Of a stretch of 64,000 nucleotides of DNA, positions 4,302 through 62,939 are shown one piece after another (the stretch's first letter is position 1; every line of letters starts with the position of its first letter). Where the stretch lies: IMG/VR virus record IMGVR_UViG_3300032093_000017; one strand, given 5' to 3'. A program made the translations under genes and the position numbers. This DNA comes from a virus. The notes under the pieces were generated by a model. That model worked only from the letters and a program-made list of their open reading frames with translations, was not told the origin of the DNA and did no database searches.

Positions 4302-5092
4302 AGATAAAAGTTTTTGTAGTAACCTATAATAATTTTGAGTATTTAAAAAATAATATAGTATCTATTTTAAACTCTGATTTAGTTAATTATAATTATTCAA
4401 TAAATGTTATTGATAATTATTGCCAGGGAAATAAAGTAAAAAACTTTTGTTATGAAAATAATATAAATTTATTTGAAAATAAGTTAAGACCTTCTTTTTC
4501 TACAGGGCATCTATCCAGAAGTTGGAATCAATGTATTATTAATGGATTTAAAGATTTAAATAATCCCGATTGTGATATTCTTGTTTTGTGTCAAGATGAT
4601 AATTTATTTTTATCTGAATGGTGCAATGAATTGATTGGTCATCATGATACTTATGAATTTATTTCTATGGGTGGTGGTGATCAATTCCATTCATATAAAC
4701 CAGAACATATTAAAAAAGTAGGTTTATGGGACGAAAGATTTTGTAATATAGGTTATCAAGAATATGATTACTTTATTAGATCTTATATTTACAATAAAGA
4801 ATATTCTTCTATTAATGATCGAAAACACAAAAGATTATATAATACTATTGGAGATAAATTTATAAGTCATGATGACCATTTGATTGGTGGTATGAGAAGT
4901 GATCCAAGACATTTAAATAGTACAAAATATCATAATATATCACATCAAATTTTAATTCAAAAATGGGGAAGTGAAATTTGGAATATTGACTACTTAAACA
5001 CTTTATGTGTAAGTAAAATACCAAATTATGTATATTATCCTTATTTTGAAAAGGACATATATAATTTGAAAGAAAAAAATTATTTGATTTAA
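4298..5092 (+). CDS. GT2-like glycosyltransferase
   Basis: VVTYN, VIDN, QDD and VGLWDERF motifs. Confidence 0.65.
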   Translation: MKIKVFVVTYNNFEYLKNNIVSILNSDLVNYNYSINVIDNYCQGNKVKNFCYENNINLFENKLRPSFSTGHLSRSWNQCIINGFKDLNNPDCDILVLCQDDNLFLSEWCNELIGHHDTYEFISMGGGDQFHSYKPEHIKKVGLWDERFCNIGYQEYDYFIRSYIYNKEYSSINDRKHKRLYNTIGDKFISHDDHLIGGMRSDPRHLNSTKYHNISHQILIQKWGSEIWNIDYLNTLCVSKIPNYVYYPYFEKDIYNLKEKNYLI

Positions 5093-12204: not shown

Positions 12205-12223
12205 AATAATAAGATATAATATG

Positions 12224-12257
12224 AAACCCTGTTGCTAAATAAGCAGCAGGGTTTTTT
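12224..12257 (+). terminator. Intrinsic terminator with a late promoter in its loop
   Basis: AAACCCTGTTGC-TAAATAA-GCAGCAGGGTTTTTT. Confidence 0.7.
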
Positions 12258-12263
12258 AGTATT

Positions 12264-12428
12264 ATGCCACGCGGACAATTGACCAAAGAAATCATTAAGT
12301 GTGAAGTTCTCAAATTAAAATCTGAGTTAGATAAGGAGTGGATGAATAAAACTGAATATGATCCAAAATGGTTGGCACACCATTATTTAAATAAGGTTAT
12401 TGACAAAATAGAAGAGTATAGGCATTGA
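12264..12428 (+). CDS. Hypothetical protein (54 aa)
   Basis: MPRGQLTKEII...EEYRH; follows a TAAATA promoter. Confidence 0.55.
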   Translation: MPRGQLTKEIIKCEVLKLKSELDKEWMNKTEYDPKWLAHHYLNKVIDKIEEYRH

Positions 12429-12465: not shown

Positions 12466-13137
12466 ATGACATTAGATCTTCATAACTTTTTCAAGTATTA
12501 TGATGATGGTAATGCGAATCATGTATCAGCAGTTCAATGGTTAGAGGATAACCTTCCTGCTCAATTTATGGATGACTCAGAATCTGAATGGATTGGAATT
12601 TTTAGAACAAAACCACCAACTCCAGCAGTTCTTGATGTTCCATACTTTAACCAAGTAGACAACTATAGAGATGCACAAAGAACTTGCAACTCTTCATCGT
12701 GTGCAATGTGTCTTGCTTTCCTCAAACCAGGAAGCATTAAAGGTGATGATGAGTATGTTAAGAAAGTATTTGCGATTGGTGATACTACAGACCATGCAGT
12801 TCAAACTAAAGTTCTACAAGGTTATGGTATTAAATCACACTTTAGTTATAATTTAAGTTTTGTTGATATTGATAAGAGTCTTGATAGAGGAAAACCTGTT
12901 GTTATTGGTATTCTTCACCGTGGTTCTCTAACTTCTCCTACTGGTGGGCACATGTGCGTGGTCATTGGTAAGACTCCAGATGGTAAGGGATATTATATTA
13001 ATGATCCTTATGGTTCTCTCAATGACAATTATACTGGTCCCGTAACGAATGGTAAGAAAACCATTTATACCAAAGCAGTTCTTAAGCACCGTTGGGCACC
13101 TACCGGAGGGGACGGATGGGGTCGTATCTTTGATTGA
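12466..13137 (+). CDS. Peptidase C39-like protein with an N-terminal domain shared with the lysozyme
   Basis: VPYFNQ, CNSSSCAM, GHMCVVIG and INDPYG motifs. Confidence 0.8.
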   Translation: MTLDLHNFFKYYDDGNANHVSAVQWLEDNLPAQFMDDSESEWIGIFRTKPPTPAVLDVPYFNQVDNYRDAQRTCNSSSCAMCLAFLKPGSIKGDDEYVKKVFAIGDTTDHAVQTKVLQGYGIKSHFSYNLSFVDIDKSLDRGKPVVIGILHRGSLTSPTGGHMCVVIGKTPDGKGYYINDPYGSLNDNYTGPVTNGKKTIYTKAVLKHRWAPTGGDGWGRIFD

Positions 13138-13144
13138 TAAATAA

Positions 13145-13204
13145 TAATGCCTTAATTGGTTCGCATCTTTAAGGTAGAGGGGGAGCAGAAATGCTCCTTT
13201 TCTT
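13145..13204 (+). ncRNA. Putative small late RNA (two hairpins) antisense to the endonuclease leader
   Basis: TAAATA at 13138; hairpin GCCTTAA-loop-TTAAGGT; GAAA-tetraloop terminator; loop complementary to 13218-13227. Confidence 0.45.
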
Positions 13205-13240
13205 GTATAAATACTATTGCGAACCAATTTAAGAGTAGAA

Positions 13241-13876
13241 ATGATAAATCCTAACAGGTTTTATACCTATGCCTATTTGCGTGAGGATAGAACTCCTTAT
13301 TACATAGGTAAGGGAGTAAGATATAGATTATTTGAAGGTAGTGGAAAACCTTGTCCTGTTCCAAAAGATAAAAATAGAATAATCTTTCTCAAACAAAATC
13401 TTATAGAAGAGGAAGCATTTAAACACGAAACTTATATGATAAGTGTGTTCGGCAGAAAGATTGATGGTGGAATTCTTTTGAATAAAACTTTTGGTGGTGA
13501 AGGTGCTTCTGGTAGAGTAGTCAAAGATTCCACCAGAGTAATTCTTAAAGAGAAATGTAGTGGGTGGAAACACACACCAGAAGCAATAGAAAAAATAAGA
13601 CAAAGTTCTTTGAGTAGGATATATTCCCCAAAAAGTGAGGAAACAAAAAGAAAAATAAGTAATACTCTAAAAGGAAGAAAATTATCAAAAGAGTTGGTAG
13701 ATAAAAGAACTCAATCTGTCTGTAAAAATACTTATGTCATAATATCACCAGATGGGGTTAAATATAATACCAATAATTTAAAAGAATTCCAAAGACAAAA
13801 TAATTTAAAACATCTTTATGATGTGGTTTCTGGTAAAAGGAAACAAGAGAAAGGTTGGACTGCTTTTAAAATATAA
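13241..13876 (+). mobile_element. Free-standing homing endonuclease, GIY-YIG-like with NUMOD3 repeats
   Basis: FYTYAY...YYIGKG, E, LLNKTFGGEG; HTPEAIEKI and SEETKRKIS repeats; TATAAATA at 13206. Confidence 0.8.
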
Positions 13877-13898
13877 ATAACTAAAAAGGATTCGCAAG

Positions 13899-14342
13899 AT
13901 GGACGCACAAGATTTTCGTAGTCTTCAAGAAGCATATTTGGAAGTCGTTAGTAATAATAATGAGTTGAGTGAAATGTCTTATAAAAAACTTCCTGTCGGC
14001 AAAATGATGAGAAAAGTTGAATATAGGGCAGAAAGAGAAGCAGATACGAGAGCAGATGCAGAAACAGCAGACACAACTGCTTTTATGAGTCATAATCGGG
14101 CATTAAGAGCGCACAAACGCGCAGAAAGAAATAAAGAAAGAAGCAATAGAATGATAAATGTTGCTGATACTCATAGTAAGAAAGCAGCAAAGGCAAAATC
14201 AAAACTTAAAAAAGAACAAGTAGACATCTACGACATCATCCTCTCACACTTACTTGATGAAGGATATGCTGAAACTCCAGAAGCAGCAGAAGCAATTATG
14301 GTGAATATGAGTGAAGATTGGAGAGAGAGTATTATTGGTTAA
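13899..14342 (+). CDS. Late protein with conserved ends and a variable core, copy 1
   Basis: Termini nearly identical to 21650-22120; TATAAATA at 13872. Confidence 0.8.
   Translation: MDAQDFRSLQEAYLEVVSNNNELSEMSYKKLPVGKMMRKVEYRAEREADTRADAETADTTAFMSHNRALRAHKRAERNKERSNRMINVADTHSKKAAKAKSKLKKEQVDIYDIILSHLLDEGYAETPEAAEAIMVNMSEDWRESIIG
14223..14342 (+). repeat. 120-nt dispersed repeat, copy A
   Basis: 112/120 nt identical to 22001-22120 by manual comparison. Confidence 0.9.
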
Positions 14343-14348
14343 ATACTT

Positions 14349-14495
14349 ATGGAGAATGAAAACTCCTCGATTAATTTCAAGAGAAAGATCTTACAAAGAA
14401 TTAAAGATCTTACAAATCACGGAAAGCACTTAGAAGCTTCCAAACTTTTCAACAAATACTTTGGAGACGACAATGGCAAGAATCGATTTACATAA
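14349..14495 (+). CDS. Hypothetical protein (48 aa)
   Basis: MENENSSINF...; follows TAAATA; overlaps the lysozyme start. Confidence 0.4.
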   Translation: MENENSSINFKRKILQRIKDLTNHGKHLEASKLFNKYFGDDNGKNRFT

Positions 14496-15144
14496 CTTCT
14501 TCAAGTTCTATGACGAGAAGAACCCTAATCATGTGAAAGCAGTTCAATGGTTAGAAGATAACCTACCAGTCAAGTATCTGGAAGATAACGTAGATTGGGC
14601 GGAGATCTACAGAGGAAAAAAGGGTAATGCGGCACCAGCATCAGCACCATCTGCTGCCGCTCCTGTAGTTGGTGGTGACGATATGCCTATGATGGGTCTT
14701 AAATTAATCAAAGAGTTTGAAGGATGCCATCTGAAAGCATATCCAGATCCTCTCACTGGTGGACTTCCAATCACAATTGGTTGGGGTTCAACCCGCAAGA
14801 AGGATGGATCTGCATTCCATATGGGTGATACTCTCACACAAACAGAAGCAGATGAACTTTTGATTGAACAATGCAAGAGAGAATTTCTTCCTGCACTTCG
14901 CAAAATTCCACACTGGAATGAAATGTCTGATGGTAAAAAAGGTGCCCTACTTTCTTTTGCTTATAATCTCGGTGCTGGTTTTTATGGTTCTGGTGATTTT
15001 AATACTATCACTAAGAGACTGAAGAATAAAGAATGGGACTTAGTTCCCGATGCTTTATATCTCTACAGAAATCCTGGTTCAAATGTAGAAGCAGGTCTTG
15101 CTCGTAGAAGAAAAGCAGAAGGTGAATCTTGGAAAAAAGGTTAA
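14473..15144 (+). CDS. GH24 lysozyme (endolysin-like)
   Basis: IKEFEG..LKAYPD...TIGWG, SFAYNLG and GLARRRKAE motifs. Confidence 0.9.
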   Translation: MARIDLHNFFKFYDEKNPNHVKAVQWLEDNLPVKYLEDNVDWAEIYRGKKGNAAPASAPSAAAPVVGGDDMPMMGLKLIKEFEGCHLKAYPDPLTGGLPITIGWGSTRKKDGSAFHMGDTLTQTEADELLIEQCKREFLPALRKIPHWNEMSDGKKGALLSFAYNLGAGFYGSGDFNTITKRLKNKEWDLVPDALYLYRNPGSNVEAGLARRRKAEGESWKKG

Positions 15145-21614: not shown

Positions 21615-21649
21615 GCAAAAGAATAAATAACTAAAAAGTATCTCATAAG

Positions 21650-22120
21650 ATGGACTCACAAGAACTTCGCAATCTTCAAGAAGCATATATGGAAGTTGTT
21701 GAAAATCAGAAACTTGATGAAGAAATAACTCCCGAAAGAAGAACACAATATAAAAGAGGTCTTAAAGTTAGACAAACAAACCAAGAAACTGGTTTTGGTA
21801 AAGGAAGACCAAGAAAAAGAGCAACCTCACCACAACCAGGAGCACAACATTATAGAAAAGGAATGACGCAATCTCATCGTGATACTATGAGAGATGCTGC
21901 GAGAGAAGAAAATCCCGAAAGACCAGAAGGTAGTGGTTCTCTTCCAAAGGGTAAAAAGTTAGAAAGACAAAAGAAAACAGGTGTAAGTGCTGAAAGTTTT
22001 GATATTTACGACATCATCCTCTCACATCTTCTTGATGAAGGATATGCTGAAACACCAGAAGCAGCAGAAGCAATTATGGTGAATATGAGTGAAGATTGGA
22101 GACAGAGTATTATTGGTTGA
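21650..22120 (+). CDS. Late protein with conserved ends and a variable core, copy 2
   Basis: Termini match 13899-14342; shares the upstream ATAAATAACTAAAAAG. Confidence 0.8.
   Translation: MDSQELRNLQEAYMEVVENQKLDEEITPERRTQYKRGLKVRQTNQETGFGKGRPRKRATSPQPGAQHYRKGMTQSHRDTMRDAAREENPERPEGSGSLPKGKKLERQKKTGVSAESFDIYDIILSHLLDEGYAETPEAAEAIMVNMSEDWRQSIIG
22001..22120 (+). repeat. 120-nt dispersed repeat, copy B
   Basis: Matches 14223-14342, including a 48-nt perfect run. Confidence 0.9.
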
Positions 22121-61496: not shown

Positions 61497-62939
61497 ATGT
61501 ATAATTACACTTCCGGAAGAGTTAAAAAAGAAACAAGAACAGGAATCACATCCGATAGATATGAATTTTTAGGATTAAATCAAGCAGAGCCAGATCTCGG
61601 AGATCCATTGGTTGGTCCTTCTTCAGTTGGTGCAAATCCAGCACCACCTTCAATATCTGGTGATCAATATTTACTCGTTGCCAATAAAAATAATCCGGGA
61701 AAAAGATATTGGATTGCATCTTCTCAGGTATTGACTGGTGGTTTAATTCCCGGTTCTTTCACTATTTTTGATGATAATATTCAAGTAGGAGCAGCAAATA
61801 GTTTTAATGTTTTTAATTTAGTTGGTGATATTGTGTCAGTAGATCCAGTTGGTTCTGGGGTTTCCGATCAAACTGGAATTGCGACAATTAGATTTTCACT
61901 AAAAGCGCCTGGTCAAGCAAATCAAATAATGTATCACGGAAGTGGTAATTTAATTAGAGCAGCAAGTGGATTTGTATATTCTTCAGGAAATATTGGAATT
62001 GGAAGTAATTCTCCAACTGAAATACTGGATGTAAGTGGAAATGGTAAGTTTCTTGGATCTGTAAGTGCTTCAAGTTTTGTAGGTAACTTAACAGGTACAG
62101 CAACTACTGCTTCTGGATTAACTGCAACATCAAATATAAACACTACTGGTATTATAACTGCTTCAAGTTTTGTAGGTAACTTAACTGGAACAGCAACCAC
62201 TGCTTCTGGTGTTTCCACAGAAATAAACATTAACACTACTGGTATTATAACTTCTTCAAGTTTTGTAGGTAATTTAACTGGAACAGCAACCACAGCAACC
62301 ATAGCATCTACAGCACTTGGAGTATCAACATCAATTAGCATCAATACCACAGGAATTATAACTTCTTCAAGTTTTGTAGGTAATTTAACTGGAACAGCAA
62401 CTACAGCAAATAATGTAAGTTCTAGTATTAATATAAACACTAGTGGAATTATAACTGCTTCAAGTTTTGTAGGTAACTTAACAGGCACAGCAACTACAGC
62501 AACAAATGTAATTAGTGGTTTTGCATCTGTTTCTTCATTGAATGTCTCTGGCATAACTACGATTGGAAGTGCAACAACTTCCACAAATACACCATTACAA
62601 GTTGAAACTTATGGAGTAAAAACAGGAACTGGTAATTTTATTGCTTCAGTTGGAATTACTACATCCATAGATAGTTTTTCCATTACAACTACAGACTTCA
62701 AATTAGTTGAGTATTCTGTTCATATTGGATTTAGTAGCAGTATTCAAGTTCAAAAAGTTTTAATTATGCAAGATGGCATTATTGCAAATGCTGAATCTTA
62801 TGGCATTATGTATAACAAAAATGCTTTGGTTGCAATTGGAGCAACTTTGGATGGGACTGACTGTAAATTGCAAGTTACACCTCAGTCTGGAGTAAATGGA
62901 GTGACCACATATAGATTCGTAAGAGGAAGTTTATTATAA
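61497..62939 (+). CDS. Tail fibre protein (module 2, gene C)
   Basis: SGRVK..SDRY..NQAEPDLGDP; SSFVGNLTGTATTA repeats. Confidence 0.7.
   Translation: MYNYTSGRVKKETRTGITSDRYEFLGLNQAEPDLGDPLVGPSSVGANPAPPSISGDQYLLVANKNNPGKRYWIASSQVLTGGLIPGSFTIFDDNIQVGAANSFNVFNLVGDIVSVDPVGSGVSDQTGIATIRFSLKAPGQANQIMYHGSGNLIRAASGFVYSSGNIGIGSNSPTEILDVSGNGKFLGSVSASSFVGNLTGTATTASGLTATSNINTTGIITASSFVGNLTGTATTASGVSTEININTTGIITSSSFVGNLTGTATTATIASTALGVSTSISINTTGIITSSSFVGNLTGTATTANNVSSSININTSGIITASSFVGNLTGTATTATNVISGFASVSSLNVSGITTIGSATTSTNTPLQVETYGVKTGTGNFIASVGITTSIDSFSITTTDFKLVEYSVHIGFSSSIQVQKVLIMQDGIIANAESYGIMYNKNALVAIGATLDGTDCKLQVTPQSGVNGVTTYRFVRGSLL
62060..62500 (+). repeat. About 96-nt imperfect coding repeats
   Basis: (INTTGIIT)ASSFVGNLTGTATTA x5. 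Confidence 0.85.

Follow-up and report, generated by a model that had tools for sequence, protein, structure and literature searches.

The window, i.e. the whole stretch of 64,000 nt analysed here (IMG/VR record IMGVR_UViG_3300032093_000017), is DNA of a T4-like cyanophage, and its nearest GenBank relative is the Synechococcus phage DSL-LC03 (Kyanoviridae), with 85 % identity over one gene only. Upstream of a homing-endonuclease-like gene it carries, in 5' to 3' order, a late-promoter box (P1), a hairpin with an anti-leader, an intrinsic terminator, a late promoter (P2), the leader and the start codon. The features of the locus are the following:

12466-13137, + strand: upstream gene, C39-like peptidase (endolysin-type; Pfam Peptidase_C39_2, E 8e-14; PHROG endolysin; 85 % identity to the DSL-LC03 endolysin)
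13136-13143, + strand: P1, late-promoter-like box GATAAATA, from the sequence; predicted start G13149
13148-13165, + strand: 5' arm (anti-leader) of the long-range masking helix, from the minimum free energy (MFE) fold, RNAalifold and covariation counts
13149-13175, + strand: HP1, local hairpin with a 7-bp stem (GCCTTAA, 13149-13155; 13-nt loop; TTAAGGT, 13169-13175)
13149-13204, + strand: predicted, hypothetical RNA of ~56 nt from P1 to the terminator, based on P1, HP1 and the terminator
13176-13204, + strand: intrinsic terminator, stem-loop GGAGCA-GAAA-TGCTCC (13182-13197) and U-run TTTTCTT (13198-13204)
13206-13213, + strand: P2, late promoter TATAAATA, from the sequence; predicted start G13219; in the loop of the masking helix and invariant across the alignments
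13218-13237, + strand: 3' arm, i.e. the leader of the nuclease mRNA, from the MFE fold and covariation; leader motif TGCGAACCAATTTAAGAG at 13218-13235
13241-13876, + strand: homing-endonuclease-like gene of 211 aa, with a probable GIY-YIG-like N-terminal domain, NUMOD3 repeats and a C-terminal DNA-binding part

Sequence inspection of positions 13136-13243 recovered, each in its place, all the elements that a first-pass annotation had listed, i.e. the late box, the hairpin, the GAAA terminator, the second late promoter and the ATG at 13241. The TGA stop of the peptidase gene overlaps P1, the core of which (ATAAATA, 13137-13143, with a G just before) fits the cyanophage late consensus NATAAATA (PMC2984593). 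The anti-leader consists of the HP1 loop and the HP1 5' strand, while an SD-like AAGAG (13231-13235) lies within the 3' arm and the helix ends 4 nt short of the ATG. With its GC-rich stem-loop and directly adjoining U-run, the element at 13176-13204 has the make-up of an intrinsic terminator; it was absent from the list given by a consensus terminator scan of the window, presumably because the scan extends the stem into the U-run. Rfam gave no family match at the site, and a search of the window for other copies of the module returned none, i.e. only the antisense self-match and one weak match at E 4.6.

Nuclease, cassette and module family

The 211-aa product passes the Pfam cut-off for NUMOD3 and matches a PHROG homing endonuclease family (E 3e-9), and related proteins carry annotations as Seg-like or intron-type endonucleases. 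In 11 homologues the N-terminal pattern YxY..YIGKG..R..HE..N is invariant and is followed by NUMOD3-like repeats in variable number. The Pfam GIY-YIG-type model scored E 0.2, which is below its cut-off, and the best PDB profile match was a GIY-YIG protein, without significance (E 0.1). A Foldseek search with a predicted model of moderate quality (pLDDT 67) gave I-HmuI as the best match (E 8.5e-4) and the UvrC GIY-YIG domain at E 0.02-0.08. The downstream gene is thus homing-endonuclease-like, with a probable GIY-YIG domain.

The gene combines the DNA-binding extension of homing endonucleases (NUMOD3) with a presence/absence polymorphism at its site. In DSL-LC03, which is without the gene, the two lysis-type genes are adjacent and both nuclease and module are absent at this site; in the window they are split by a block from 13138 to ~14374 that comprises the module, the nuclease gene and a 147-aa ORF. 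Imperfect direct repeats of the peptidase gene end flank this block (13114-13137 and 14349-14374), the right-hand one being a degenerate version of the final ~25 nt of that gene. In alignments, this right-hand repeat matches the end of the gene in the nuclease-less allele of DSL-LC03; immediately behind it, the intergenic sequence common to the two phages sets in again. Since module and nuclease are missing together from the DSL-LC03 allele, the module, P1 included, came with the cassette.

Three further observations concern the cassette and its surroundings. The 147-aa ORF (13899-14342) has a paralogue starting at 21650, and the two share a nearly identical late-promoter box and leader (ATAAATAACTAAAAAG...ATGGAC; 13873-13901 and 21623-21652). 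The second lysis-type gene (14461-15144, lysozyme-like by PHROG) starts at ATG 14475 according to its alignment with DSL-LC03, as opposed to TTG 14461 in the mechanical ORF list. In a related locus (L033, 4331-4441, minus strand), an intact module is followed by only nine nuclease codons, joined to the 3' end of an ORF homologous to the 147-aa one, so that most of the cassette must have been deleted in that allele.

Judged by comparison with related loci, the window carries one copy of a control module of ~105 nt that is portable and accompanies free-standing homing endonuclease genes of T4-like cyanophages (Kyanoviridae). The ~105-nt layout precedes several GIY-YIG and HNH nuclease types on more than 80 IMG/VR contigs. 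An 18-nt leader probe retrieved 28 IMG/VR contigs, in each of which the ~100 nt between P1 and the ribosome site recur behind differing upstream sequences, and the nucleases behind these modules belong to two or more GIY-YIG types and an HNH type. Loci collected via nuclease homologues held diverged modules, the arms of which are entirely different yet still paired. Full modules are also present in the isolates S-SRM01 (six copies; L057-L069), S-B68 (L058, 44327-44427), B23 (L059, L062 and L066) and S-N03 (L060), where they stand before GIY-YIG, HNH and other small genes; the S-N03 copy has two terminator hairpins between its arms. The GenBank record of S-SRM01 shows no annotated feature beneath the module at 62406-62512. 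A nuclease-bound RNA, which the first-pass annotation had kept in play, is not borne out, given that near-identical modules precede unrelated nuclease families.

The genes upstream of the module end at or within P1 in nearly all contexts, and they are co-oriented with it wherever this can be assessed. Copies opposed to their flanking genes, in which P1 would be the sole source of the arm, were sought among 118 and gave five candidates, which we rejected: the true upstream gene is co-oriented wherever a family match exists, and the remainder could not be decided.

Masking helix and its known counterparts

The MFE fold of 13130-13260 (-37.5 kcal/mol) is a long helix of 13148-13165 with 13218-13237 that encloses the terminator, and it is more stable than expected (z = -4.4; none of 200 shuffles folds equally well). 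The ribosome-binding region (AAGAG) lies inside this helix, as in the T4-type masks. P2 is located 5 nt before the 3' arm, so that a transcript from its predicted start would lack the 5' arm; the P2 leader alone has no structure (0 kcal/mol). The complementarity itself had been proposed in the first-pass annotation, and it is found as described, i.e. the reverse complement of CTTAATTGGTTCGCA equals the leader over 12 bases, followed by a bulged T and three more bases. Perfect 12-nt inverted repeats with loops of 20-120 nt are only mildly unusual in a single window (four distinct ones observed, 1.4 expected), and the case against chance therefore rests on covariation among related modules.

Three folds recur in all 24 variants folded: the full RNA adopts the mask, the RNA from P1 to the terminator forms HP1 and the terminator hairpin, and the P2 leader is unstructured. 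In each variant the masking helix is the MFE structure, at -33 to -43 kcal/mol, with 16-22 bp around the terminator. A plain MAFFT alignment analysed with RNAalifold recovered the mask with compensatory changes in 18 of 24 pairs. In a covariance-model alignment of 29 copies, 97.9 % of the cells of the masking helix are paired and 20 of its 22 pairs show double changes, counts that none of 500 shuffles matches and for which slid controls reach 31-52 %, the alignments behind them having been fitted to the structures under test. The covariation between loop and leader in homologues, by which the first-pass annotation had proposed to judge its idea, is hence present, and the arm-leader complementarity is, on this comparative evidence, under selection.

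That annotation had left two readings side by side, i.e. a trans-acting RNA of ~60 nt or a cis switch on read-through RNA. What the two have in common, a pairing over the ribosome-binding region, is real and selected, and the cis form corresponds to the established T4-type mechanism. In I-TevI, I-TevII, I-TevIII and segB of T-even phages and in mobE of the Aeromonas phage Aeh1, the ribosome site is hidden in a hairpin on RNA that begins further upstream, and an inner late promoter gives rise to a translatable late RNA (PMC2988022). For cyanophage-like 'fractured gene' loci of ocean and lake metagenomes, the main text of Dassa et al. 2009 describes hairpins before free-standing endonuclease genes, with 15 of 16 leaders forming hairpins, 10 of them containing TATAAATA, and with two conserved motifs that are complementary in the stem (PMC2677866). 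Mask and nested late promoter have thus been published for nucleases of both T4-type and cyanophage-like origin, and the mask itself is not new.

The module shares with the T-even and Aeh1 masks a stable helix over the ribosome site, a late promoter TATAAATA inside the structure, a late transcript without the 5' arm and a homing endonuclease as the regulated gene. It differs from them in that its loop also holds an intrinsic terminator, its 5' arm is preceded by a conserved late box of its own and folds into a covarying local hairpin, the whole is a portable cassette common to several nuclease families, and the transcription entering the window copy appears to be late instead of early or middle. 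The metagenomic hairpins concern the same virus group and gene class, but the main text of that paper mentions no loop terminator, upstream promoter box, local hairpin or small RNA (PMC2677866).

The P1-hairpin-terminator unit

To obtain a sample unbiased with respect to P1, modules were picked by a 17-mer across the terminator U-run and P2, which yielded 93 unique instances; the 83 with a strong arm-leader duplex were used for the count. The motif [AC]TAAATA stands 19-24 nt upstream of the arm 3' end in 81 of these 83 modules, compared with 2.4 % of random 40-nt windows, and of the two instances that lack it there, one is no module. The same sample contains 43 distinct arm sequences, which, together with the double changes in 20 of 22 pairs, indicates that complementarity to the target has been kept by compensatory change, a pattern that fits cis and trans action alike.

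Of the 81 modules carrying P1, 79 have an HP1-like local hairpin that begins no more than 3 nt from the predicted P1 start (median z -2.2). HP1 and the masking helix are mutually exclusive. HP1 covaries as well, with compensatory changes in six of seven pairs and 88.9 % of cells paired, and so does the terminator (helix 3; seven of eight pairs, 97.7 % of cells), the U-run of which adjoins P2 in all copies.

In the window, both ATAAATA and CTAAATA are found 19-32 nt before 16 ORF starts on the + strand (30 box sites listed), from which the working late box of this phage appears to be [A/C]TAAATA and not T4's TATAAATA. P1 is an orphan among these gene-proximal boxes, being followed by a hairpin and a terminator and by no ORF. 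The base preceding the box varies among the late boxes of the window.

Taken together, P1, HP1 and the terminator predict a late RNA of ~56 nt (13149-13204), which folds as two hairpins (-23.5 kcal/mol). Beyond the known mask, the conserved unit probably represents an extra promoter and terminator that would release this antisense-like RNA. Cognate pairing in trans, after opening of HP1, is favourable by a net -12.8 kcal/mol in the window copy and by -12 to -15 kcal/mol in the six S-SRM01 modules, while non-cognate pairs mostly yield 0 to -8 kcal/mol; such orthogonality within one genome fits both modes of action and does not discriminate between them. The trans-acting antisense RNA of the first-pass annotation thereby gains indirect support from a promoter box in 81 of 83 modules, a covarying hairpin that starts at the predicted P1 start and a favourable predicted pairing energy, and nothing in the sequences separates trans from cis action.

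The module was looked for in the phages with published transcriptomes (Syn9, S-PM2, P-HM2, P-SSM2 and S-RSM4), where it is absent and only ordinary terminator-plus-promoter look-alikes occur. To our knowledge, no transcriptome exists for S-SRM01, S-B68 or B23.

No description of a conserved unit of P1, hairpin and terminator was found in the literature searched, which included the main text of PMC2677866, and the nearest parallels differ in substance. CfrI of cyanophage S-PM2 (Millard et al. 2010, as cited in PMC2984593) is likewise encoded by a T4-like cyanophage, non-coding and associated with a homing endonuclease gene, but, as described there, it is ~225 nt long and a true opposite-strand antisense RNA spanning the endonuclease gene and psbA, and S-PM2 is without a copy of the module. 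StxS is a small RNA arising from early termination downstream of a phage late promoter, and thus shares the arrangement of a late promoter followed at once by a terminator that yields a short regulatory RNA; however, it belongs to a lambdoid prophage, has host targets, is a by-product of antitermination control and involves no self-targeting leader mask (PMC7547250).

Loop-initiated antisense control of toxic or dosage-sensitive genes is a feature of the type I toxin-antitoxin pairs tisB/istR-1 and hok/sok and of the plasmid pair CopA/CopT. Like the antisense RNAs of these systems, the predicted RNA of the module would be small, would begin with a recognition hairpin and close with an intrinsic terminator, and would have as its pairing partner the leader and ribosome site of the mRNA of a potentially harmful protein. 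In contrast to them, it would be encoded on the same strand and in tandem, not opposite or divergently, its complementarity spans only ~18 nt, and both the RNA and its effect are predicted.

Proposed action in cis and in trans

Based on the above, we propose that the module may combine a mask in cis on any RNA that carries the arm with a P1-derived RNA of ~56 nt acting in trans. Comparison shows that the nuclease leader is paired with the arm over a stretch that begins near the predicted P2 start, stops 4 nt short of the ATG and buries the ribosome-binding region. RNA carrying both arms, whether by read-through from the upstream gene or from P1, would be translationally masked, and RNA begun at P2, without the arm, would be translatable. 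P1 would fire late as well, and most of its transcripts would end at the terminator, leaving the ~56-nt RNA with the anti-leader hairpin at its 5' end and the terminator hairpin behind it. Pairing of this RNA with P2 transcripts, in trans and initiated at the hairpin loop, would damp nuclease synthesis, so that the module would limit a potentially harmful nuclease in any genomic context in which it lands. We regard this combination of cis and trans action as evenly poised between holding and failing.

It is tempting to go further and to see in the P1-hairpin-terminator unit a real late RNA of ~56 nt that represses its cognate nuclease mRNA in trans by pairing between loop and 5' end, i.e. a built-in, tandem, antitoxin-like RNA of cyanophage homing endonuclease cassettes, with many mutually orthogonal specificities able to coexist in one genome. 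This we put forward tentatively, with somewhat more doubt than belief.

The transcription that reaches the window copy lends some weight to the P1 RNA having a role. Upstream of the module, a strong terminator (12223-12255) is followed by late boxes at 12235 and 12434, suggesting that incoming transcription is late; if so, a purely temporal mask in cis would gain little here, which favours such a role. The upstream terminator is itself of note as another promoter-inside-hairpin arrangement, i.e. a 14-bp hairpin whose loop contains the late-promoter-like CTAAATA (12235) and which is followed closely by a 54-aa ORF starting at 12264.

Should the module act in cis only, it would be a translational mask of the T4 type with an added terminator, its arm working on read-through RNA alone, and P1 would either not be a working promoter or give a short RNA without function. 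P1 could then have been kept as a spacer or stop-codon tract at the left end of the cassette, or polymerases from P1 stalled at the terminator could occlude P2, and HP1 could insulate the arm from foreign upstream context until the leader is made. We consider this a possibility to be taken seriously, if a doubtful one. The mechanism is established for the T-even and Aeh1 genes named above (PMC2988022) and has been noted, in the main text of Dassa et al., for cyanophage-like nuclease genes with TATAAATA inside hairpins (PMC2677866), and this paradigm accounts for the arms without any RNA acting in trans. Since all upstream genes that could be assessed are co-oriented, read-through would always be able to supply the arm in cis, and these genes nearly always end at or within P1. 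The long-range helix is retained more strictly than HP1 (97-99 % vs 89 % paired), and the invariable contact of the terminator U-run with P2 fits as well. Two more points count against the combined action in cis and trans: P1 and P2 are both late boxes, so that the regulatory gain from an RNA in trans would putatively be constant damping, and P1-hairpin-terminator units standing alone are rare, i.e. one in about 172, the single case in 1.46 Mb being on contig L138. The notion of a free small-RNA gene, for which stand-alone units would have spoken, was rejected on the strength of that single case. Regardless, action in cis only leaves unexplained why 81 of 83 modules keep an exact [AC]TAAATA heptamer at a constant distance despite a variable spacer, and why HP1 starts at the predicted P1 start, and the temporal benefit of such a mask would be small in the window copy with its late incoming transcription.

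At the other extreme, the terminator might be so efficient that read-through is negligible and all pairing takes place between a terminated RNA (either the small RNA from P1 or the 3'-terminal part of the upstream mRNA) and the P2 mRNA, resembling a tandem type I toxin-antitoxin pair. The canonical GC stem, tetraloop and U-run of the terminator with their strong covariation, the conservation of P1 and HP1, and the favourable and, within one genome, largely orthogonal cognate duplexes would all agree with this. We nevertheless think it improbable: intrinsic terminators are rarely complete, with ~30 % of transcripts stopping at the terminator inside mobE in T4 (PMC2988022), and read-through RNA must fold into the mask of -37 kcal/mol, so that some action in cis would be hard to avoid. 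Least probable of all, and very much so, is that no RNA device exists and the module is a DNA-level recombination or mobility cassette, like the promoter and stem-loop cassettes proposed to shuffle genes in T4-type phages, or an operator or target mimic of the nuclease, since, even if the module is mobile and delimits the inserted block on the left, and even if I-TevI binds an operator overlapping its late promoter (PMC2988022), compensatory changes in three helices point to selection on RNA or single-strand pairing and not on sequence, and one module serving unrelated nuclease families makes a protein-specific site unlikely.

Homing endonucleases are selfish nucleases, and their tolerance by the host phage demands restrained expression. 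Whereas the T4 mask with its nested late promoter depends on genomic context, the module looks self-contained, with its own mask, a terminator and two promoters, and this would account for the use of one leader by many nuclease families and at many insertion sites. Provided that the short RNA is real and acts as proposed in the combination of mask and trans-acting RNA, homing endonucleases would have their first described case of antisense control in tandem and on the same strand, T4-like phages would have a rare small RNA, and the arms and leaders would form a natural set of dozens of orthogonal pairs. If the RNA is not real, the module would still be a well-supported and widespread elaboration of a known mechanism that is missing from Rfam and from the GenBank annotation at the S-SRM01 site mentioned above.

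An ORF of 13 codons beginning at an ATG in the terminator loop (13191-13232) was considered as a leader peptide and rejected, because this ATG is missing in many variants, which have other loops. The stand-alone unit on L138 (minus strand, ~5000-5075 in reversed coordinates) consists of P1, hairpin and terminator without P2 or a complementary leader; an ordinary late box and an ORF follow ~55 nt further on, and the unit may be a relic of nuclease loss.
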